From NCBI GenBank assembly GCA_964348785.1, contig CAYGDO010000002.1, positions 2,238 to 66,237 on the forward strand: DNA of 64,000 nucleotides, read 5' to 3'. The DNA comes from an uncultured Candidatus Saccharibacteria bacterium. Its GTDB lineage: Bacteria > Patescibacteriota > Minisyncoccia > Phycocordibacterales > 2-02-FULL-43-11. The notes below the pieces were generated by a model. The model did no database searches. It was not told where the DNA came from and saw only the letters and a list, made by a program, of their open reading frames with translations. Both the position numbers and the translations under genes were made by a program. Shown here piece by piece: positions 1,324-63,773 of this stretch. The number at the start of each line of letters is the position of its first letter. Position 1 is the first letter of the stretch.

Positions 1324-2357
1324 AGATTAAATTCAAAAAAGAAGATTTTTATAAATGTTTCGAATTTCCGGTGAAGTATTACCTTGATGAGACTAAATCT
1401 AAATCAAACAGAACCACCGGACAACAGAGAGGACTAGGCTCTATCATAAATGATTTTTTCCTAGGAAAACTAATTGAGATAGGAGTGGCAAGAGCTATTG
1501 AAGAGAGAAGTAATAATAAAAAAATACACTTGGATTTTGATATACATGAATCGGGCGAGAATCACGATAACGATCCTGATATTGTGAAAGTAACAGAATC
1601 GGGAAAAGATCGCGAGCCTAAGTTATATCTTGAAATAAAAAATGTTTCTGAAAATGACAGATTTATAGGCCTTACTTCTGAACAATGCTCTACTATGCTC
1701 GGTAGCAGAATTATTTCAAACGATTCCTCGAGGCTATTCATTGTATACGGAACAGTTTCTTCATCTGATAAATCAAAAATATGTGATGTGTTTGGCGCAT
1801 ATTTGAAATCAGAAATAAAAGATGATCTTTTAGATGGGTTTGCAGATATAGCCGATATTTATCTTGAAATTAAAAGTGTCATAAATACGAAAGAGCTTAC
1901 CGAAAATTGTTTGAAGTTTGATAAAGGGTCGCTGTTTTATGAGACTGAAATATTGGGGCCAGAAATAACTGAGACAAAGGCTAACAAAATAAGAGCTTCA
2001 GAATATGAGACAAAAAATTTAAAGGATGAAGTCTTACCGATAATAATGATGAACAGCTATCCTGCTCCAAAAGAATTCGGCGAATTCAGACTTGAAGGAC
2101 AAACAACCTTATTTATAAAGATTAACGACAAATCAAAAAGAATTTATTTAGACTGCCATTCTAACGGATACATTGAGAATAAATCTCTCGGAAGATTCGA
2201 TCTAAAAAACGGAAAAATGTATGAACTTTTCTTCACAACCATAGGGCGAAATCCTGTTTTAAGCAGAAACAACTTGTGGATCGCCCGGCGGAATGTAAAT
2301 AACATTATCCCAGATACTGTCGAACAGCGAATCGAGTATATAGCAAAAAATATTTAA
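1320..2357 (+). CDS. Putative type II-like restriction endonuclease (PD-(D/E)xK superfamily)
   Basis: Motif NDPDIVKV...(16 aa)...KLYLEIKNV = PD-x(n)-ExK; 3' end overlaps 4 nt convergently with the C5-MTase gene, a common R-M arrangement. Confidence 0.45.
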   Translation: MKIKFKKEDFYKCFEFPVKYYLDETKSKSNRTTGQQRGLGSIINDFFLGKLIEIGVARAIEERSNNKKIHLDFDIHESGENHDNDPDIVKVTESGKDREPKLYLEIKNVSENDRFIGLTSEQCSTMLGSRIISNDSSRLFIVYGTVSSSDKSKICDVFGAYLKSEIKDDLLDGFADIADIYLEIKSVINTKELTENCLKFDKGSLFYETEILGPEITETKANKIRASEYETKNLKDEVLPIIMMNSYPAPKEFGEFRLEGQTTLFIKINDKSKRIYLDCHSNGYIENKSLGRFDLKNGKMYELFFTTIGRNPVLSRNNLWIARRNVNNIIPDTVEQRIEYIAKNI

Positions 2358-3934
2358 GAATTCATTGCTCTCATCATTTGTTTTGCCACAGCTTCAATCA
2401 CTGGAACGCTAACAGAATTTCCAGCTTGTTTGTATAAGGCCGAATCAGAAATTGTGGGCAAAATATAGTCTTTTGGAAAACCTTGAATTCTAAAACATTC
2501 TAAAGGAGTCAATTTTCTTATTCCTTTTTTATCTTTAATTATTGGCACGTTATGTCCGCCCATTCCCATGTTTGCAGTCAGAGTAGGGCATACACTACTT
2601 TTATTTTCTCTAACGTATTGTCTACGCCATTGATAAACTTTTCCTTCTTCTTTTATAAAATTTTTCAATTTTTCAAACAAAGGTTTACCATTGTAATAAT
2701 ATTTTTCTGGAACATTTTTTTCTAATAAATCAGTAATTTTTGTATTCAATTTGATTGGACTAGGAAACTCAAATCTGTCTGAGTATGACTTATTTCTAAA
2801 GCCTACAATATAGATTCTCTCTCTATTTTGAGGAACATTTCCATATTCCATAGTATTTAAAACCTTAATTTTTACATAATAACCGAGGTCTTTTAAGGCC
2901 TCTTCAATAATCCTAAAAGTTTTTCCTCCATCGTGACTCTTTAGATTTTTTACATTCTCCAAAAGAAAACCCTCAGGCTTTCTAGCTTCTAAAATTCGAG
3001 CAATATCAAAAAACAAATTTCCTCTACCTTTTTCATCATTGAATCCTTGTCTGTATCCTGCGATAGAAAAAGCCTGACAAGGAAAACCTCCCAAAATAAA
3101 ATCGAATTTTGGTAAATCATCGATTCCAATCTTTCTAATATCTTCTACTACCAATTTAGAATCCTTAAAATTTAAATCATAAGTTTCTTTACATTTTTGA
3201 TCAAAATCATTTGCAAAAACTGTTTTAAATCCAGCCCTTTCAAAACCTATACGAATACCTCCAATACCAGCAAATAAATCTAAGGTACGAAAACCATGTT
3301 TATTCTTTTTTTGTTTTTCCTCTTGCGGAACATTTTTTATATTACTTATTACTTGAACGACAACTCCTCTAATTTCAACATCTGTCCTAAATAAAGGGCT
3401 CATATTTGGATTTCTAGGTTCCAATCTGATTCTATTTTTTTCGTAATAAAGTCTTTTCAAAGTTGCCTCATTGTCATCAATAATAGCGACGACGGTCTGA
3501 CCGTTTTCTGCAACAGATTGTTTTTTGATAACAACAATATCACCATCAAATATTCCGTCATCAATCATGCTCTCACCAACAACTCGTAAAGCGTAATAAC
3601 CATTTGAATTTTTTATACTAGGGTTTACTATAGAAATAGTATCCTCATGATTTTCGATTACTTCTATAGGCTGTCCGGCAGCAATTCTTCCTAAAACAGG
3701 AATCTCAATGATTGATTTAATTTCTTTCATCGGAGAAAGGCCTCTGACTGAATTTTCCGACCGAGAAAGAAAGCCCTTGTTTTTTAAAGAAGAAATATGT
3801 TCATGCACAGTGGACACAGCCCTAAGTTTTAATTGTTTTTTTATTTCTTCAAAAGTGGGGGATATGCCATTTTCAGAAAAATAACTGTTAACAAAATCAA
3901 ATACTTGTTTTTGTTTTTTTGTTAAATTAGACAT
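2354..3934 (-). CDS. LexA-like repressor (wHTH + S24 peptidase) fused to DNA (cytosine-5)-methyltransferase (Dcm family)
   Basis: N-terminal 200 aa collinear with LexA: MSNLTKKQKQVFDF...HTH, cleavage site RIAAGQP (Ala-Gly), catalytic Ser in VVGESMIDDG and Lys in EATLKRL; C-terminal 320 aa has C5-MTase motifs I FAGIGG, IV GFPCQAFS, VI ENV, VIII QNRERIYIVG, X GNSVSVPV; single uninterrupted 526-aa ORF. Confidence 0.85.
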   Translation of the reverse strand: MSNLTKKQKQVFDFVNSYFSENGISPTFEEIKKQLKLRAVSTVHEHISSLKNKGFLSRSENSVRGLSPMKEIKSIIEIPVLGRIAAGQPIEVIENHEDTISIVNPSIKNSNGYYALRVVGESMIDDGIFDGDIVVIKKQSVAENGQTVVAIIDDNEATLKRLYYEKNRIRLEPRNPNMSPLFRTDVEIRGVVVQVISNIKNVPQEEKQKKNKHGFRTLDLFAGIGGIRIGFERAGFKTVFANDFDQKCKETYDLNFKDSKLVVEDIRKIGIDDLPKFDFILGGFPCQAFSIAGYRQGFNDEKGRGNLFFDIARILEARKPEGFLLENVKNLKSHDGGKTFRIIEEALKDLGYYVKIKVLNTMEYGNVPQNRERIYIVGFRNKSYSDRFEFPSPIKLNTKITDLLEKNVPEKYYYNGKPLFEKLKNFIKEEGKVYQWRRQYVRENKSSVCPTLTANMGMGGHNVPIIKDKKGIRKLTPLECFRIQGFPKDYILPTISDSALYKQAGNSVSVPVIEAVAKQMMRAMNS

Positions 3935-42026: not shown

Positions 42027-42344
42027 CTATTTATTAAATTTTTTTTCAATAAATCGCGCAAAAGAATTGTCGGGAGAACAACCAGCATATACCTTAGTCC
42101 ATCCAAAACCAACAATAGGGATACCGCCATAAGATTTACACTCCTCTTCAGAGTATGTTTTTTTATAAAAAACATACGTGCCTCCGTTATCTGGACAAAC
42201 ATCACCAAAACATACAGTTTTAATTTTGTATGGATTTATTATATAGGCCAATAAAAGTATTAAAATAATAGAAAATAAAATTTTTAAAAATTTTTTCATA
42301 AAGGGAATTATAGCATTTAAGAAGGGGAGTCGGGGGGGGTTCAA
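42027..42344 (-). CDS. Small secreted Cys-rich protein (likely starts at internal MKKFLKIL)
   Basis: Signal/TM then CFGDVCPDNGG...CKSYGG...GCSPDN. Confidence 0.35.
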   Translation of the reverse strand: MNPPRLPFLNAIIPFMKKFLKILFSIILILLLAYIINPYKIKTVCFGDVCPDNGGTYVFYKKTYSEEECKSYGGIPIVGFGWTKVYAGCSPDNSFARFIEKKFNK

Positions 42345-42650
42345 ATCCCATTAGGGTCTAAAAATTACAAAACAAAAACAGAGCATCCACTCTGTTTTTG
42401 GTAATTTGTGACCCTAATGGGAATTTTGAAACTTACAGTTTCAGTACACCTTTCCCATTTGCTTATAATAAGAATTACTCGCAAATAAGGGAGAAGGTTT
42501 TCAAATCCCATACGCAAGTGAATCAATTCACTTGCTTAGGGTCATTAATAAAAATGGCTTTGGAAAAAACCAAAGCTAATTTTTATACTAATGACCCTAA
42601 TTAGTGAAAATTGGAATCTACTTTTAAAGCAAATGAAAGTTTTTAAAGTC

Positions 42651-42992
42651 TTATTTAGTTAAGTATATATATGAGTAGAAAAGTATAAAAAACATTACAA
42701 AATATATAAGTGCATACAAACCATATATCTTGTGAGGGGTATATGCCACTTTCTTAGCTTCAAGATAGTCTTCTTGATGTTTTTTATCAAAATATTCAAG
42801 AATTAAAGAAATTGTAAGTCCAAAAGTTATTATTATCCAAAACCACAAATTCTCGTTACCTCCAAACGATTTAGCAAAAACATCTGGAGAAAAAGACAAC
42901 AACAAGAACGTGTTAACAAAAATAAGGCTGACTATTAATATAATTTTAATTTTTCTACGCACGGATGATAACAGCAATAAGATTAACCACAT
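42651..42992 (-). CDS. Small multi-TM membrane protein
   Basis: Hydrophobic ORF; overlaps next ORF by 38 nt in a different frame. Confidence 0.3.
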   Translation of the reverse strand: MWLILLLLSSVRRKIKIILIVSLIFVNTFLLLSFSPDVFAKSFGGNENLWFWIIITFGLTISLILEYFDKKHQEDYLEAKKVAYTPHKIYGLYALIYFVMFFILFYSYIYLTK

Positions 42993-43221
42993 TCAAAATA
43001 ACAGAGATTATTCCCAATGTCATACCTGCCATTCCTAATGCCCTAGAACCTCCTTTTCTGGCCTGGAATCCAAATACAGTAGCTATTATTGCCGCTATCA
43101 ATCCGACTACTATCAACAAAGAAGGAGATAATTTAATATACAAAATCTTTGACCAAACCCAAGGAAAAAAGAATATGGTCGAAATAATAATACTTAAAAT
43201 GCCTTTCCATGACGCTTTCAT
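42955..43221 (-). CDS. Small multi-TM membrane protein
   Basis: Hydrophobic ORF within tRNA-Glu-adjacent repeat region. Confidence 0.3.
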   Translation of the reverse strand: MKASWKGILSIIISTIFFFPWVWSKILYIKLSPSLLIVVGLIAAIIATVFGFQARKGGSRALGMAGMTLGIISVILNVVNLIAVIIRA

Positions 43222-43875
43222 AATTTGTTCAGTCAGTTTTATTAATAATATTTATTATAACACTATAGATAATATTTTATTCTTAATAAGGTTTATACCC
43301 CTAATGGGATTTTCCTTCGACTCTCAGCTAGCCGTCGCTCGAAACAGTCACATTCGCTCTGCTAAGCTCAGTACTTCCTCGCTCTCGCTTGGTCGCTAGG
43401 CACCGACTCGCTTGTTTTTTCTGCTGAAAAAACATAGCTCCGTCGTTCAAATCCCATACGCAAAGCGAGCAGTCGCTTTGCTTAGGGTCATTAATAAAAA
43501 TGGCATAACTAATGGGAATTTTGCCCGCGACTAAAACTTTTTCGTCAAAAAGTTTTGTCTGGGCACCGACTCGCGCTTCGCCGAAACGGCTCAATGCGCT
43601 CCGTCGTTCAAATCCCATTAGGATCTAAAAATTACAAAACAAAAACAGAGCATCCACTCTGTTTTTGGTAATTTGTGACCCTAATAGAAACAGGGACTTG
43701 GTCACAAATCATTTTGTGCCGTCGCACAAAATGTTCGCGACCCCAGCTCAGCATTTTGCGAAACGTAAAATATGCCTGCGCTTTTCAAATCCCATATGCA
43801 AAGCGAGCAGTCGCTTTGCTTAGGGTCATTAATAAAAATGGCTTTGGAAAAAACCAAAGCTCATTTTTATACTAA

Positions 43876-43950
43876 TGACCCTAATGGGATTTGAACCCAT
43901 GTTACCGGATTGAAAATCCGATGTCCTAGACCAGGCTAGACGATAGGGCC
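43876..43950 (-). tRNA. tRNA-Glu (anticodon UUC)
   Basis: Minus strand GGCCCTA-TC-GTCT-AGCCTGGTCTA-GGAC-A-TCGGA-TTTTCAA-TCCGG-TAAC-ATGGG-TTCAAAT-CCCAT-TAGGGTC-A folds as cloverleaf; collinear with E. coli tRNA-Glu. Confidence 0.85.
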
Positions 43951-44084
43951 AGCACCATAATTATAGCAAATTATCAATAACCAATTTTCAAATTTTCATT
44001 GAAATTGCTAAAAGCTAGTGGCTAATAGCTAGGCGCTAGTATATACCATTTTTATGAAAAAAGGCAAAAAAAATCCCCAAGAGA

Positions 44085-44290
44085 GGGGACCCAAAAGGGA
44101 AGGAAGGTCAGGCCGGAAGGGCTTCAGCGACTGCATCAAGGACGATGCCCTCGTCAAGATCACATCCATCACGAGGATACTCCCTGAAAAAAGCGCTGAC
44201 GGCCCAAACTGCGCCTTCACGGCCATGGAGACCAAACCGTTGACACAGCCACACACAGTAGGCGACAGGGTTCATACTAGTTCAATAATA
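44085..44290 (+). ncRNA. GC-rich non-coding-looking patch with SRP-RNA-like GGUCAGGCCGGAAGG motif (speculative)
   Basis: 200 nt of high GC in AT-rich context; overlapping ORFs on both strands look non-protein-like; GGTCAGGCCGGAAGG resembles SRP RNA domain IV GGUCAGGUCCGGAAGG. Confidence 0.2.
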
Positions 44291-44344
44291 TACCTCAAAA
44301 ACTCAAAAAAACAAGTTTGAGTGGTATTTTATACAAACCGTAAA

Positions 44345-44797
44345 TTAAGAAAATAATTGATCAACGACACTTTTCACATCACTACCATCCGCTTTTCCTT
44401 TTAGATCTTTCATGAGGCCAGACATGAGCATTCCAGATTTTGTCTTATCGGTAATTCCAAGCTCAGCTTTTTTATTTTTGGCAATTTTTAAAATTTCTTC
44501 TCTACTCATCATTTGAGGCAAATAAACTTCCAAAATTTTAAGCTCATCTTCTTCAGTCTTTACTAAATCTTCTCTTCCACCAGCTTTAAACTGCTCAATA
44601 GAATCCTTTCTCTGTTTAACCAATCTTTTAATAACAGACAGGGCTTCTTCATCTCCCAGTTCGGTCTTACCTGGTTTGTTTATAAGTTCGTTCAAAAAAA
44701 CCGCTTTTACTGATTTCAAAGTATTCAACCTTAAAGTATCCCTAGCGATCATTGCTTTTTTGGCTTCGTCTTGTATTTGTTGAAATAAACTAACCAT
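44345..44797 (-). CDS. GatB/YqeY domain protein
   Basis: MVSLFQQIQDEAKKAMIARD...LSVIKRLVKQRKDSIEQFKAGGREDLVKTEEDELKILEVYLP matches YqeY; start set at internal Met. Confidence 0.7.
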   Translation of the reverse strand: MVSLFQQIQDEAKKAMIARDTLRLNTLKSVKAVFLNELINKPGKTELGDEEALSVIKRLVKQRKDSIEQFKAGGREDLVKTEEDELKILEVYLPQMMSREEILKIAKNKKAELGITDKTKSGMLMSGLMKDLKGKADGSDVKSVVDQLFS

Positions 44798-60772: not shown

Positions 60773-60846
60773 GCATCCTTAGCTCAGTTGGTTAGAGCGT
60801 GCGATTCACATTCGCAAGGTCGGAGGTTCGAATCCTCCAGGGTGCA
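60773..60846 (+). tRNA. tRNA-Val (anticodon CAC)
   Basis: GCATCCT-TA-GCTC-AGTTGGTTA-GAGC-G-TGCGA-TTCACAT-TCGCA-AGGTC-GGAGG-TTCGAAT-CCTCC-AGGGTGC-A cloverleaf. Confidence 0.85.
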
Positions 60847-61150
60847 CTAGCAACCTAACAAGCAATCTGCATTGCTTGTGTGGAGGATTCGAAAAGGTTC
60901 TCCCATATCGAGTCCGCGAGATGGGAAACCTGTACTGACCCTGTAAGGGTCGATCCCTACAGGATGCATCAGACTGAACAAGCAAACGATTTTGCTTGTG
61001 TTAGGGATCGAAGACCTTTTGAGCCTAAAATTGATTTTAAGAAAATTTTAGCCAAAAGGTGTACTGAAACTGTAAGTTTCGATATCCCTCCATTCCATGG
61101 TGCACCAGACTGAGCAAGCAAACGTCCGCCAGCTGGCGGATTGATTGCTT
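60847..61150. repeat. tRNA-Val-downstream repeat array (hairpins NcaagcaaN..ttgcttgNg, T-arm-like fragments, repeated cagactga(a/g)caagcaaacg)
   Basis: Three related hairpin units; segment ggattcgaaaaggttctcccatatcgagtccgcgagatgggaaac is homologous to the element inserted in tRNA-Pro (63641-63753). Confidence 0.45.
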
Positions 61151-63568: not shown

Positions 63569-63639
63569 CGGGGCGTAATATAGTGGTCGTATACACCCTT
63601 CGGGAGGGTGAGGCCCGAGTTCGATTCTCGGCGCCCCGA
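63569..63639 (+). tRNA. tRNA-Pro (anticodon CGG)
   Basis: CGGGGCG-TA-ATAT-AGTGGTC-GTAT-A-CACCC-TTCGGGA-GGGTG-AGGC-CCGAG-TTCGATT-CTCGG-CGCCCCG-A cloverleaf, U33, G37. Confidence 0.8.
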
Positions 63640-63640
63640 A

Positions 63641-63773
63641 TGAACGAAGTGAGTGAAGAGGGCGAGCGAGCAAACTGCTTTGCTCGCGTCCAGAATCGAA
63701 AGGTTTTTCCTTATCGAGTCTGCGAGATGGAAAAACATCTGGCTACGTGGTAGCCGATTCTCGGCGCCCCGAA
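63641..63773 (+). repeat. 113-bp element inserted after tRNA-Pro plus 19-bp direct duplication of tRNA-Pro 3' end (CGATTCTCGGCGCCCCGAA at 63622-63640 and 63755-63773)
   Basis: Perfect 19-bp direct repeat; intervening sequence homologous to tRNA-Val-downstream repeats (hairpin gagcgagcaaa-ctgc-tttgctcgc; ...gaatcgaaaggtttttccttatcgagtctgcgagatggaaaaac). Confidence 0.55.

Follow-up and report, generated by a model that had tools for sequence, protein, structure and literature searches.

Introduction

The 3' end of a tRNA gene is a favoured landing site for several kinds of mobile DNA. Integrative elements that target tRNA and tmRNA genes (those with tyrosine-integrase att sites, and their non-autonomous derivatives of CIME type) insert at the 3' end, leave the gene intact, give rise to a repeat of about 18-22 bp running from the T-loop to the end of the gene, and accrete in tandem. 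Casposon and CRISPR-repeat style integration proceeds by staggered cuts which duplicate 14-37 bp of the target, and the targets of some casposons are tRNA 3' ends. Rickettsia palindromic elements, REP/BIME, Correia elements and the GC clusters of yeast mitochondria are short, hairpin-forming repeats, GC-richer than their host and devoid of a linked transposase. Structures resembling tRNA serve processing or stability in tmRNA, bacterial YrlA, mascRNA of MALAT1 and viral 3' tRNA-like structures. TIGR arrays, which have been reported in Patescibacteria, consist of ~36-nt units with two 9-12-nt spacers and adjoin a Nop-domain (Tas) gene (PMC12045711).

Here we describe elements found behind the tRNA genes of a window of 64,000 nucleotides, by which we mean the whole stretch of DNA analysed. 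They share with tRNA-targeting integrative elements the 3'-end site, the intact gene, a repeat that starts in the T-loop and tandem accretion at the same tRNA. They differ in having no integrase, no cargo and a period of only ~130-230 nt, as well as in a covarying three-way-junction body, an antisense copy of the target that is split by a hairpin (H), and occurrence at more than 25 tRNA species. Among the marks of an att site, the direct repeat of the tRNA 3' end is present and the integrase is absent, and the insert is conserved scaffold save for 42602-43295. A polar array anchored at one end, with a target-sized repeat of ~20 bp between inserts, also recalls casposon and CRISPR integration, but no Cas1/casposase gene was seen, the scaffold is a single conserved one, and the antisense copy would be unaccounted for. 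Like the palindromic repeats, the elements are non-coding, multi-copy, GC-rich, long-lived and tolerated in or next to RNA genes, whereas those repeats lack a single target class and target-matched sense and antisense segments.

The guide-hairpin-guide layout, with two variable segments around a conserved stem that are complementary to a DNA target, is shared with the bridge/seek RNAs of IS110/IS1111 and with tigRNAs, and the elements carry a tandem G.A motif resembling that of box C/D RNAs. Both antisense segments, however, read the same target strand, and unlike at IS110/IS1111 no DEDD/Tnp recombinase gene adjoins the elements. The window yielded neither a DEDD/Tnp recombinase gene nor one for a Nop-domain (Tas) protein, and no DEDD/Tas gene was seen beside the elements elsewhere; a TIGR array was rejected for the missing Tas gene and on unit length (130-210 nt here). 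The predicted closing helix of the element, made of acceptor and T stem and ending at the discriminator, is akin to tRNA-like structures, and as modelled it could be a substrate of RNase P, RNase Z or the CCA-adding enzyme. In contrast to them, the helix is an exact copy of the tRNA next to it, with a paired discriminator, and a three-way junction replaces the T-loop; none of the tRNA-like families of Rfam matches the elements.

The array behind tRNA-Glu

An earlier note on this DNA had described a thicket of inverted repeats next to an intact tRNA-Glu(UUC) gene. The gene was confirmed and the antisense copies are real, but the inverted copies proved to be an internal segment of units that all run in one direction. 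Read on the tRNA-Glu (minus) strand, the region 42338-43875 holds five units, E1-E5, joined head to tail in a single direction; three are complete, one carries a second scaffold type and one is truncated. A full unit consists, in order, of a terminator-like hairpin (T1), the antisense of the acceptor 3' strand, hairpin H, the antisense of T-stem and T-loop (GAAUCGAA), a scaffold and a direct repeat (DR). The scaffold is a conserved three-way junction, and the DR repeats the part of the tRNA that begins in the T-loop (~position 57) and runs up to the discriminator. Eight relatives show the same order as the window. Scores in the list below refer to R1, a covariance model built only from foreign sequences, with none from the window.

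43876-43950, minus: intact tRNA-Glu(UUC) (ARAGORN, 43875-43951; Rfam RF00005, 62.5 bits)
43675-43875, minus: unit E1, complete, subtype-A scaffold (R1 66.4 bits, E = 1.8e-15)
43829-43875, minus: E1 T1, terminator-like hairpin directly after the tRNA, the unit B palindrome (terminator scan; repeat families)
43820-43828, minus: E1 antisense of discriminator and acceptor 3' strand, TGACCCTAA (sequence reading)
43798-43819, minus: E1 hairpin H, GCAAAGCGACTGCTCGCTTTGC, the inserted hairpin that splits the antisense copy (repeat families; sequence reading)
43784-43797, minus: E1 antisense of T-stem 3' strand and T-loop, ATATGGGATTTGAA (R1 alignment; sequence reading)
43701-43783, minus: E1 three-way-junction scaffold with GA-motif arm hp1 and arm P3/hp2, GGGGUCGCG...UGUGAC (R1 alignment; fold)
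43675-43700, minus: E1 DR of the tRNA 3' part, partly decayed, CAAGTCCCTGTTTCTATTAGGGTCAC (R1 alignment; sequence reading)
43509-43674, minus: unit E2 (R1 52.4 bits, E = 8e-12)
43626-43674, minus: E2 T1, unit A hairpin
43607-43625, minus: E2 antisense, unsplit
43523-43606, minus: E2 scaffold, subtype B
43509-43522, minus: E2 DR, truncated
43296-43508, minus: unit E3, with a T1 remnant (R1 33.3 bits, E = 8e-7)
43482-43490, minus: E3 antisense-acceptor
43460-43481, minus: E3 H
43446-43459, minus: E3 antisense-T
43314-43445, minus: E3 scaffold with an expansion of ~90 nt
43296-43313, minus: E3 DR
42602-43295, minus: segment between two DR copies, with two small hydrophobic ORFs, 42955-43221 (88 aa) and 42651-42992 (113 aa)
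42592-42601, minus: DR remnant preceding E4, ATTAGGGTCA (sequence reading)
42408-42591, minus: unit E4, second (type I) scaffold (blastn; type I alignment)
42545-42591, minus: E4 T1
42536-42544, minus: E4 antisense-acceptor
42514-42535, minus: E4 H, version 1
42500-42513, minus: E4 antisense-T
42428-42499, minus: E4 scaffold
42408-42427, minus: E4 DR
42338-42407, minus: unit E5, truncated, without scaffold
42359-42407, minus: E5 T1, unit A
42338-42358, minus: E5 antisense, perfect over 21 nt

The part of tRNA-Glu from T-loop to discriminator (43876-43896) is the source copied, sense and antisense, in every unit. Its 21-mer, GGTTCAAATCCCATTAGGGTC, occurred three times at no more than 3 mismatches and not at all in shuffles. 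The core TCAAATCCCAT had six exact occurrences, all inside 42341-43894; five of the six lie on the plus strand, and three of those five are broken after CCCAT by a 25-nt hairpin. On the minus strand, part-copies were located at 42408-42427, 42592-42601, 43296-43313, 43509-43522 and 43675-43700. Where at least seven copies had been claimed, we counted about ten copies and part-copies, the gene itself not included. The two repeat units named previously were also recovered, unit A in two copies of 96% identity and unit B in three copies, one of them truncated; a combined unit A/B pattern gave four matches in the window as against none in shuffles. Both versions of H, said to differ in sequence and yet to pair, are present and base-paired (GCAAGTGAAT/ATTCACTTGC and GCAAAGCGA/TCGCTTTGC), and homologues of H (GCGAGC.AACUGCUU.GCUCGC) are found at the corresponding place in many foreign elements. 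The terminator scan showed an enrichment of terminator-like hairpins, with 9 observed against 1.6 expected.

In the acceptor antisense of E1 the base facing T71 is A, while the 5' strand of the tRNA itself has G2 there. The segment is therefore the complement of the 3' strand, and its derivation from the tRNA's own 5' strands was rejected. The antisense also complements the genomic base after the discriminator and then runs on into the T1 palindrome. E4 aligned by blastn with 80% identity over 140 nt to a copy downstream of another species' tRNA-Glu (locus L030); its type I alignment shows compensatory swaps, and its R1 score was only 11 bits, which is not significant. The two hydrophobic ORFs between the DR copies matched no Pfam family and had no homologue among the relative loci compared; possibly they are cargo, or unrelated genes trapped in the array. 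The Cys-rich ORF (42027-42302), which had been counted as embedded together with them, lies outside and flanks the array.

The element family

Elements follow all three tRNA genes of the window. The other two loci, behind tRNA-Val (60773-61105) and tRNA-Pro (63569-63772), both lie outside the interval flagged earlier.

60773-60847, plus: tRNA-Val(CAC) (ARAGORN)
60848-60968, plus: type I unit V1 (type I alignment)
60969-61105, plus: type I unit V2, followed by the start of a third (type I alignment)
63569-63639, plus: tRNA-Pro(CGG)
63640-63772, plus: one unit (R1 16.9 bits, E = 0.014)

The tRNA-Pro unit has H, antisense-T, a type I scaffold and a perfect 18-nt DR at 63755-63772.

A pattern derived from the scaffold was run on metagenome contigs and matched at least 120 of them. 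Together these reveal a family of non-coding elements of 130-210 nt in Patescibacteria, placed directly behind tRNA and tmRNA genes and in the same orientation as these. For 87 of the 126 pattern instances we found the end of a tRNA gene on the same strand at 22-116 nt upstream, with more than 25 anticodons represented, and tmRNA 3' ends carry elements as well. The scaffold body of ~90-130 nt is conserved and covaries across more than 100 independent contigs, which stem from many projects. Among model matches, 92 of 148 lay directly behind a tRNA, and in loci that had not been picked via the pattern a type II unit was present behind 12 of 60 tRNAs. The period from the tRNA 3' part to its DR is 132-228 nt and is filled by conserved scaffold, tandem arrays are present at other loci too, and the GC content of the element exceeded that of its flanks in 89 of 94 loci. 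The pattern matches on two viral contigs (L081 and L082) were chance hits within GC-rich coding sequence, with no sign of a phage attP origin.

Each element is matched to its own tRNA. We scored this match in 87 elements against a control with permuted tRNAs. The DR agreed at 15/17 positions or better in 47 of the 87, compared with 2 of 1471 in the control; the antisense T-stem agreed at 4/5 or better in 44 (control, 6.5%), and the antisense acceptor at 7/8 or better in 26 (control, 1.7%). Only 5 of 144 tRNAs without a scaffold had an antisense copy, by which the antisense was rejected as a general trait of tRNA terminators. The left edge of the DR is sharp and falls at T-loop position 56-58 (GGTT/CGATTC in the tRNA versus GACC/GATTC in the element, the slash marking the edge), while the right edge varies to give a length of 18-22 bp. 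The antisense segment and the DR form inverted repeats of 12-22 nt that equal the target and are not element-specific ends.

The family is absent from Rfam, and full-text searches of the literature found no paper describing such elements. The Rfam search of the region that the earlier note had suggested yielded no known structured RNA: against Rfam 15 only the tRNA genes of the window reached the gathering threshold, and at E <= 5 the region 42200-44400 gave only generic microRNA-hairpin matches, far under thresholds. Known ribozymes and a group I intron were discarded for want of an Rfam match, as was a guess of SRP RNA at 44070-44290. An exact scan for units A and B in genome and metagenome contig collections, which lack the source genome and its close relatives, returned no match, and an exact look-up of the RmuC protein gave no record.

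Folding and covariation

Read on the tRNA strand, the scaffold shows the evolutionary pattern of a structured RNA. RNAalifold predicted 28 pairs, 17 of them with compensatory changes. Paired cells made up 94.8% as compared to 75.1% in shuffles and at most 44% when partners were slid, and the covariation score of 0.534 (0.175 in shuffles), a statistic that ignores kinship, was reached by none of 500 shuffles. In an independent sequence set 93.8% were paired against 66.7%, with double changes at 24 of the 28 pairs. One G.U pair was invariant (29/29), and another alternates between G-C and G-U; the invariant pair places the fold on the tRNA-sense strand. Of the three readings offered in the earlier note, that of a structured-RNA locus, which it had rated as not negligible, is thereby the best supported, and the compensatory hairpin changes on which it relied are one case of covariation throughout the family.

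The predicted RNA fold of E1 had -66.8 kcal/mol (z = -7.5), and a further element reached z = -9.3. Predicted folds are closed by a helix between the antisense and the DR, which is a copy of acceptor stem plus T stem ending at the discriminator, itself paired. Where the DR has diverged from the tRNA, however, the antisense fits the tRNA version in 29 cases and that of the DR in 7. Selection may thus act on a pairing other than the antisense:DR helix. The alternative partner could be the 3' half of the tRNA itself, across T1. Between the close relatives L131 and L167 the outermost pair of H has changed from G:C to A:T on both sides.

Inheritance and search for mobility enzymes

Comparison of the same tRNA-Glu site among relatives showed patchy and not identical occupation, as the site is empty in L016, L019, L050 and L075 and holds one to several units in others. 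In 60 of 80 cases the closest scaffold relative resided at a tRNA for another amino acid. Loci L063 and L162 are identical through tRNA, element and DR, and diverge exactly after the DR; no near-identical pair of filled and empty sites was found. Copies sharing a contig resemble one another less than they resemble those of other contigs (47 vs 3), so that recent intragenomic bursts were rejected and the copies within one contig are old. The order tRNA-Gly-element-hup is kept among organisms that share no more than 52-83% identity in their HU proteins, and the scaffold subtype follows HU similarity. Such retention resembles vertical inheritance under selection, which speaks for a function in the host.

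As had been claimed for integrases, no recombinase domain was detected among the 51 ORFs of at least 150 aa in the window, and neither were transposase or reverse-transcriptase domains. Within 4 kb of ~120 elements there was no recurrent recombinase cluster, and the neighbours that clustered were housekeeping genes only. Neither a HUH gene nor an autonomous partner element with the same ends turned up in the window or near these elements. An ORF in L023, taken by eye for a serine-recombinase fragment, belongs to no Pfam family. One recurrent neighbour protein matches only helix-turn-helix (HTH) DNA-binding domains, which is uninformative. A retro-copy of a CCA-tailed RNA was rejected, since CCA follows the DR in only 5 of 37 cases where the gene lacks CCA, about the chance level; the idea of a primer-binding site, with the antisense pairing to the mature tRNA 3' end, was likewise given up because CCA is not complemented.

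Proposed explanation and alternatives

We hold, with moderate confidence, that the units belong to a family of non-autonomous, RNA-structured elements specific for tRNA ends and probably selfish. Such an element would sit at the 3' end of the tRNA gene and leave it intact, as the insert has the tRNA 3' end on either side of it. The universal GAAUCGAA and the variable antisense segments may recognise the T-loop and the 3' half by base pairing, and the folded transcript would be closed by a helix reproducing the cognate acceptor and T stems. As the modelled helix mimics these stems, RNase P and RNase Z could excise the element cleanly from the tRNA precursor. The array may have grown through successive acquisitions at the end of the tRNA or through unequal recombination of its 20-nt direct repeats, with older units decaying. 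The second reading of the earlier note, a nest of tRNA-derived SINE/MITE, holds in so far as the elements are short, non-coding, multi-copy and tRNA-linked, but only ~20 nt per end are tRNA-derived. Against selfishness stand the mobility machinery that was searched for and not found, the age of same-contig copies and the long vertical retention. T1, judged by its sequence, looks like a real intrinsic terminator, which would limit co-transcription of the element with the tRNA. Moreover, retargeting to a new tRNA requires a change of both antisense segments and the DR, with the conserved H in between, and no mechanism considered accounts for this.

The chief alternative is a host-functional, tRNA-linked non-coding RNA that is not mobile, whose closing helix copies the cognate acceptor and T stems and which spread by local duplication; we consider it possible but rather unlikely. 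Its transcription, with or just after the tRNA, is put forward with equal reserve, and so are its candidate roles in tRNA metabolism: it might signal processing or punctuation, draw off as a decoy the enzymes or toxins by which the tRNA 3' half is recognised, or be a CCA-tailed or charged tRNA-like RNA. Covariation of RNA type with an invariant G.U pair, the kept tRNA-Gly-element-hup order with subtypes that track host relatedness, the two-sided swap in H between L131 and L167, the high prevalence within the window and in unselected loci, the old within-genome copies and an antisense that remains matched to the intact tRNA all speak for it. It fits poorly with the patchy presence at the syntenic tRNA, the many decayed or truncated units in the window (the E3 expansion, E5 and the E1 DR), a scaffold lineage independent of tRNA identity and the terminator between tRNA and element. 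As many as five units in tandem, with differing scaffold types, stand behind one tRNA, which is unexpected for a dosage-sensitive function, and the scaffold core also lies within the D-loop of tRNA pseudo-copies, which resembles insertion behaviour.

The preferred reading of selfish, RNA-structured elements can be taken further, though only speculatively: a doubtful extension is that they form a new class of base-pairing-guided elements, in which a scaffold, two programmable antisense segments and the GAAUCGAA complement of the T-loop choose the tRNA or tmRNA end, while the tRNA-mimicking helix lets host enzymes excise the transcript. This would amount to an RNA-guided colonisation of tRNA genes without a linked protein gene, a notion that we advance just as hesitantly, and as a variant the mimic RNAs might be CCA-tailed or even aminoacylated.

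We think it improbable that the units are DNA-level non-autonomous elements mobilised in trans, whether CIME-like mini integrative elements or single-strand hairpin derivatives of the IS200/IS605 PATE or IS91 type. In the former case, itself improbable, a tyrosine or serine recombinase encoded elsewhere would recombine in the T-loop; in the latter, no more credible to us, insertion would occur 3' of GTTC in the T-loop and the hairpins would be protein-recognition structures in single-stranded DNA. The sharp left edge of the DR inside the T-loop agrees with either, as its position is the crossover site of T-loop-specific integrases and GTTC is the IS91 target. tmRNA genes are targeted too, as by integrases, strand-specific hairpins tolerating G.T are also typical of single-stranded-DNA transposons, and L063 and L162 split exactly after the DR. 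But neither the window nor the surroundings of ~120 copies yielded a recombinase or HUH gene. One recombinase specificity cannot cover more than 25 tRNA 3' halves, each with matched sense and antisense. The covariation of the scaffold helices has no known counterpart in att arms, and IS200/IS605 and IS91 elements are not known to duplicate their target. The decayed hotspot of classical integrase islands proposed in the earlier note, with repeats as leftover attL/attR and the rest as island debris, is very improbable and, for the array as a whole, largely refuted. Direct repeats of the tRNA 3' end beginning in the T-loop are indeed the classical att signature, such repeats bracket 42602-43295 with its two ORFs, and in L023 a second repeat lies 3.3 kb downstream with genes between. 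The stereotyped period with a conserved covarying scaffold inside, recurring behind more than 25 anticodons, the antisense copies left unaccounted for, and the lack of an integrase in the window, of a recombinase near ~120 elements and of a Pfam match for the L023 ORF weigh against it. That the likeness arose by chance, or that a repetitive region was wrongly assembled, is hardly credible: the organism is uncultured and repeats are prone to mis-assembly, but the window patterns gave no matches in shuffles, the same architecture recurs in more than 100 independent contigs of many projects, and R1 E-values go down to 1e-15 in the window.

Implications

If the family is as it appears, a sizeable share of Patescibacteria tRNA genes bear an uncatalogued structured passenger, 20% in the unselected sample with one of the two scaffold types counted and 3/3 in the window. 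The passenger occupies an essential gene without breaking it, each copy matched to its own tRNA, and we know of no transposition, integration or guide-RNA mechanism by which a ~150-nt element would gain matched sense and antisense of more than 25 targets. A guide-hairpin-guide design on a universal RNA gene could interest tool builders, if the directing of recombination or processing proves true. In annotations of Patescibacteria the units show up as false att sites, tRNA fragments and spurious small ORFs, and they break synteny exactly at tRNA ends; the covariance model is ready for re-annotation.

Repeats of the tRNA-Glu 3' end form an array of five units

The repeats behind tRNA-Glu are a local case of a widespread family of structured elements coupled by sequence to tRNA and tmRNA 3' ends. 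The window carries three tRNA genes, of which tRNA-Glu(UUC) lies at 43876-43950 on the minus strand. An earlier note had described a thicket of repeats at 42338-43950 built from the 3' end of this gene, and the thicket proved to be real. The 21-mer reported there occurred 3 times at up to 3 mismatches and never in shuffles, and its core, TCAAATCCCAT, was found exactly 6 times in the window, always inside 42341-43894. A repeat finder recovered both units that had been proposed, namely A, present twice at 96% identity, and B, present three times with one copy truncated, as well as a perfect 22-nt inverted repeat at both ends of the flagged region, and a combined pattern for units A and B gave 4 matches as against 0 in shuffles. 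Terminator-like hairpins were enriched (9 vs 1.6 expected), and base pairing was possible in both versions of the inserted hairpin. The inverted copies described there correspond to an antisense segment inside each unit.

The RmuC gene adjoining the locus identified the organism as a member of Patescibacteria (Parcubacteria/Paceibacteria-like). When 80 related loci were gathered through RmuC and searched with the thicket by blastn, the sequence downstream of tRNA-Glu was found to be conserved between species, and the thicket also matched sequence adjoining a tRNA-Gln. Read in the direction of the tRNA, the units have a common order. The tRNA 3' end is followed by a variable, often terminator-like hairpin (T1). 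Next come two antisense segments with a conserved hairpin (H) between them: the first is complementary to the discriminator and the 3' strand of the acceptor, the second to the 3' strand of the T-stem and the T-loop, and it is the second that terminates in GAATCGAA. Beyond a GC-rich scaffold, the tRNA sequence from T-loop to discriminator is repeated directly (direct repeat, DR). Therefore, 42338-43875 is a head-to-tail array of five units (E1-E5).

Units and intervening segment behind tRNA-Glu
43675-43875, minus strand: E1, complete
43509-43674, minus strand: E2, complete, with truncated DR
43296-43508, minus strand: E3, complete, with expanded scaffold and T1 as a remnant
42602-43295, minus strand: segment between E3 and E4 (690 bp) in which two small ORFs of 88 and 113 aa, both hydrophobic, overlap
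42408-42591, minus strand: E4, with scaffold of a second type
42338-42407, minus strand: E5, T1 and antisense only

On its left the DR has a sharp boundary within the T-loop (GGTT/CGATTC in the tRNA vs GACC/GATTC in the element); the right edge falls 0-5 nt beyond the discriminator, except where units are in tandem. Direct repeats of the 3' end of tRNA-Glu stand on either side of the ORF pair between E3 and E4. Pfam gave no family for either ORF, and about 1.9 Mb of related loci yielded no homologue; the pair may represent cargo or trapped genes, or the ORFs may be spurious.

The scaffold is conserved like a structured RNA

Twenty-nine foreign elements were aligned with MAFFT, and the RNAalifold consensus contained 28 pairs; compensatory changes occurred in 17 of these. 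Altogether 94.8% of cells were paired, compared to 75.1% in shuffles and at most 44% with partners slid. The covariation score of 0.534 vs 0.175 was reached by 0 of 500 shuffles, which supports the structured-RNA possibility raised in the earlier note. One pair was G.U in 29/29 sequences and its neighbour alternated between G-C and G-U; since G.U pairs are mismatches on the opposite strand, the fold was assigned to the tRNA strand. A covariance model of this scaffold, R1, built solely from these foreign sequences, matched four units in the window.

R1 matches in the window
E1: 66.4 bits, E = 1.8e-15
E2: 52.4 bits, E = 8e-12
E3: 33.3 bits, E = 8e-7
tRNA-Pro unit: 16.9 bits, E = 0.014

The structural conservation is strand-specific, every R1 match in the window being on the strand of the adjoining tRNA. 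In an independent set, the R1 matches in the RmuC loci, 93.8% vs 66.7% were paired and 24 of the 28 pairs showed double changes. The whole element is predicted to fold into a closed structure, in which antisense and DR form a helix and which also contains hairpin H and a three-way junction; folding z-scores were -9.3 and -7.5. One scaffold arm carries a tandem G.A motif (CGGAG/CGAG). GC content of the element exceeded that of its flanks in 89/94 loci, in hosts of 27 to 65% GC. The conserved arm P3, GGGGUCGCG-hairpin-CGUGACC (alignment A1; window 43701-43745), resembles a palindrome of the tRNA-Glu 3' end, GGGTCAC…GTGACCC, tipped by an A/T-run hairpin. Older palindromes of tRNA ends and terminators, nested within one another, may have been the source of the scaffold.

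Variable parts of the elements match the adjoining tRNA

The scaffold pattern GAATCGAA NNN CGGAG ... GAGBBGGKGYM matched at least 120 metagenome contigs; two matches in viral contigs lay inside coding sequence and were discarded as chance. A same-strand tRNA gene ended 22-116 nt upstream in 87/126 instances, and more than 25 anticodons were represented (Gly, Glu, Trp, Arg, Pro, Leu, Lys, Cys, Met, Phe, Ala, His, Thr, Tyr). The variable parts match whichever tRNA adjoins, as compared with a control in which tRNAs were permuted among loci. The DR matched at 15 or more of 17 positions in 47/87 elements (control 2/1471), the antisense T-stem at 4 or more of 5 in 44/87 (control 6.5%) and the antisense acceptor at 7 or more of 8 in 26/87 (control 1.7%). 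Antisense copies were rare behind tRNAs without a scaffold (5/144) and thus belong to the element. The unit was present at 12/60 tRNAs in loci chosen independently of the pattern.

Several elements without an ARAGORN tRNA sit behind putative tmRNA (ssrA) 3' ends, GGTTCGATTCC...ATCTCCAC, an identity assigned by eye from the 3' end only. Such ends, with matching direct repeats, occur upstream of R1 matches in L129, L174, L152, L180, L145, L089 and L148. In most tRNA genes of the comparison contigs (L001-L202), the discriminator is followed not by CCA but by C and usually A ('CA…'), and the direct repeats carry over this C.

Elements lie behind all three tRNA genes of the window

Besides the tRNA-Glu array, the window contains two further element loci.

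Elements behind the other tRNA genes
60848-61125, plus strand: tRNA-Val(CAC) array, two units of the second scaffold type (type I; V1, V2) and the start of a third
63640-63772, plus strand: tRNA-Pro(CGG), single unit

The type I scaffold is common to E4, the tRNA-Val and tRNA-Pro units, L030, L072, L045 and L066, and shows compensatory swaps of its own, e.g. AAGG...CCTG vs AACC...GGTG. No terminator hairpin lies between the tRNA-Val units, and a single terminator, TCCGCCAGCTGGCGGA, ends the array. V2 and E4 have an identical 26-nt stretch, AAAGGTGTACTGAAACTGTAAGTTTC. The tRNA-Pro unit has exactly the same H (GCGAGCAAACTGCTTTGCTCGC) as L063 and L158, both from other organisms, and its DR is a perfect 18-nt copy.

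Distribution of the elements is patchy but old

Several observations are evidence for gain and loss. Presence/absence variation, which the earlier note had proposed to look for, was seen: L016, L019, L050 and L075 have no element at the syntenic tRNA-Glu locus, which is occupied in other relatives. Tandem arrays are present in many contigs, and the nearest scaffold relative was at a tRNA of a different amino acid in 60/80 cases. Upstream of the intact gene, some contigs carry partial pseudo-copies of tRNA-Glu (L031 8120-8400, L018 4352-4500 and L070 1-300, all minus strand) whose D-loop contains the scaffold core, R1 positions 13-101, as an insert. There the layout runs …TCGTCTGATG, then scaffold…GTGAC, then TAGGAC…, and a local hairpin takes the place of the antisense:DR helix. 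The contigs L063 (13150-13800) and L162 (2350-2990), which come from different sources, are 100% identical over tRNA-Glu, element and DR (about 245 nt) and unrelated from exactly after the DR onward, which suggests that the repeat end is a rearrangement breakpoint.

Other observations are evidence for long retention. The arrangement tRNA-Gly, element, hup is common to 12 loci whose HU proteins are just 52-83% identical, and the scaffold subtype tracks HU similarity. The outermost pair of H differs between L131 and L167, which are close relatives, with both sides changed from G:C to A:T. A copy resembled copies on its own contig less closely than those on other contigs (47 vs 3).

Nature of the elements

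The elements are non-autonomous, as judged from the window and the neighbouring DNA examined. No recombinase, transposase, reverse transcriptase or HUH domain was found among the 51 window ORFs of at least 150 aa, in agreement with the earlier statement that the window holds no integrase, and no recurrent recombinase lay within 4 kb of about 120 elements, whose neighbours are housekeeping genes. The window genes are those of an ordinary chromosome (mreB/C, PBPs, Mur ligase, aminoacyl-tRNA synthetases, dnaB, recR, greA, ribosomal proteins). The family appears to be undescribed: in the region no Rfam family besides tRNA matched, even at E up to 5, and no published description of such an element was found in a full-text literature search. 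TIGR arrays, which occur in Patescibacteria, differ in having 36-nt units and a linked Tas gene (PMC12045711).

We give an even chance to the reading that these are non-autonomous and probably selfish elements with a specificity for the 3' ends of tRNA genes. Such an element would recognise the T-loop and 3' half because GAAUCGAA and the two variable antisense segments, laid out as guide, hairpin, guide, base-pair with them. The tRNA would be left intact because its 3' end lies on both sides of the element, and the element would be tolerated because its transcript mimics tRNA ends and could be cut out by RNase P and RNase Z. Arrays may extend at the tRNA end, or through unequal exchange between the 20-nt repeats, and decay afterwards. 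The main rival, a host-functional tRNA-linked RNA, appears about half as probable. Two observations are difficult for the selfish-element reading: where the DR has drifted, the antisense matches the intact tRNA in 29 cases and the DR in 7, and T1 resembles a real terminator. A DNA element mobilised in trans is rather unlikely. Classical att debris, the decayed integration hotspot of the earlier note, is very improbable, as the conserved, covarying scaffold recurs in a widespread family. Matched antisense on both sides of a conserved H, for more than 25 targets, is unexplained by any mechanism considered.

Three further readings were rejected. The antisense is not a primer-binding site for mature tRNA, since it complements the genomic base after the discriminator and not CCA; nor is it a copy of the tRNA 5' strands, since it has A opposite T71 whereas the 5' strand has G2. 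A retro-copy of a CCA-tailed RNA was discarded, as CCA follows the DR at chance frequency.

Neighbouring features of the window

Between tRNA-Glu and yqeY, at 44070-44290, lies a GC-rich island (up to 52% GC vs about 33% for the genome) with a terminator-like hairpin at its end on the minus strand. Its likeness by eye to SRP RNA (CAGGCCGGAAGGGC) was set aside, as no Rfam match was obtained at E up to 5. The ORFs at 211-1323 and 1320-2357 had no Pfam family. They lie beside an ORF of 526 aa (2354-3934, minus strand) in which a complete LexA (DNA-binding domain and S24 peptidase) is fused to a C-5 cytosine DNA methyltransferase.
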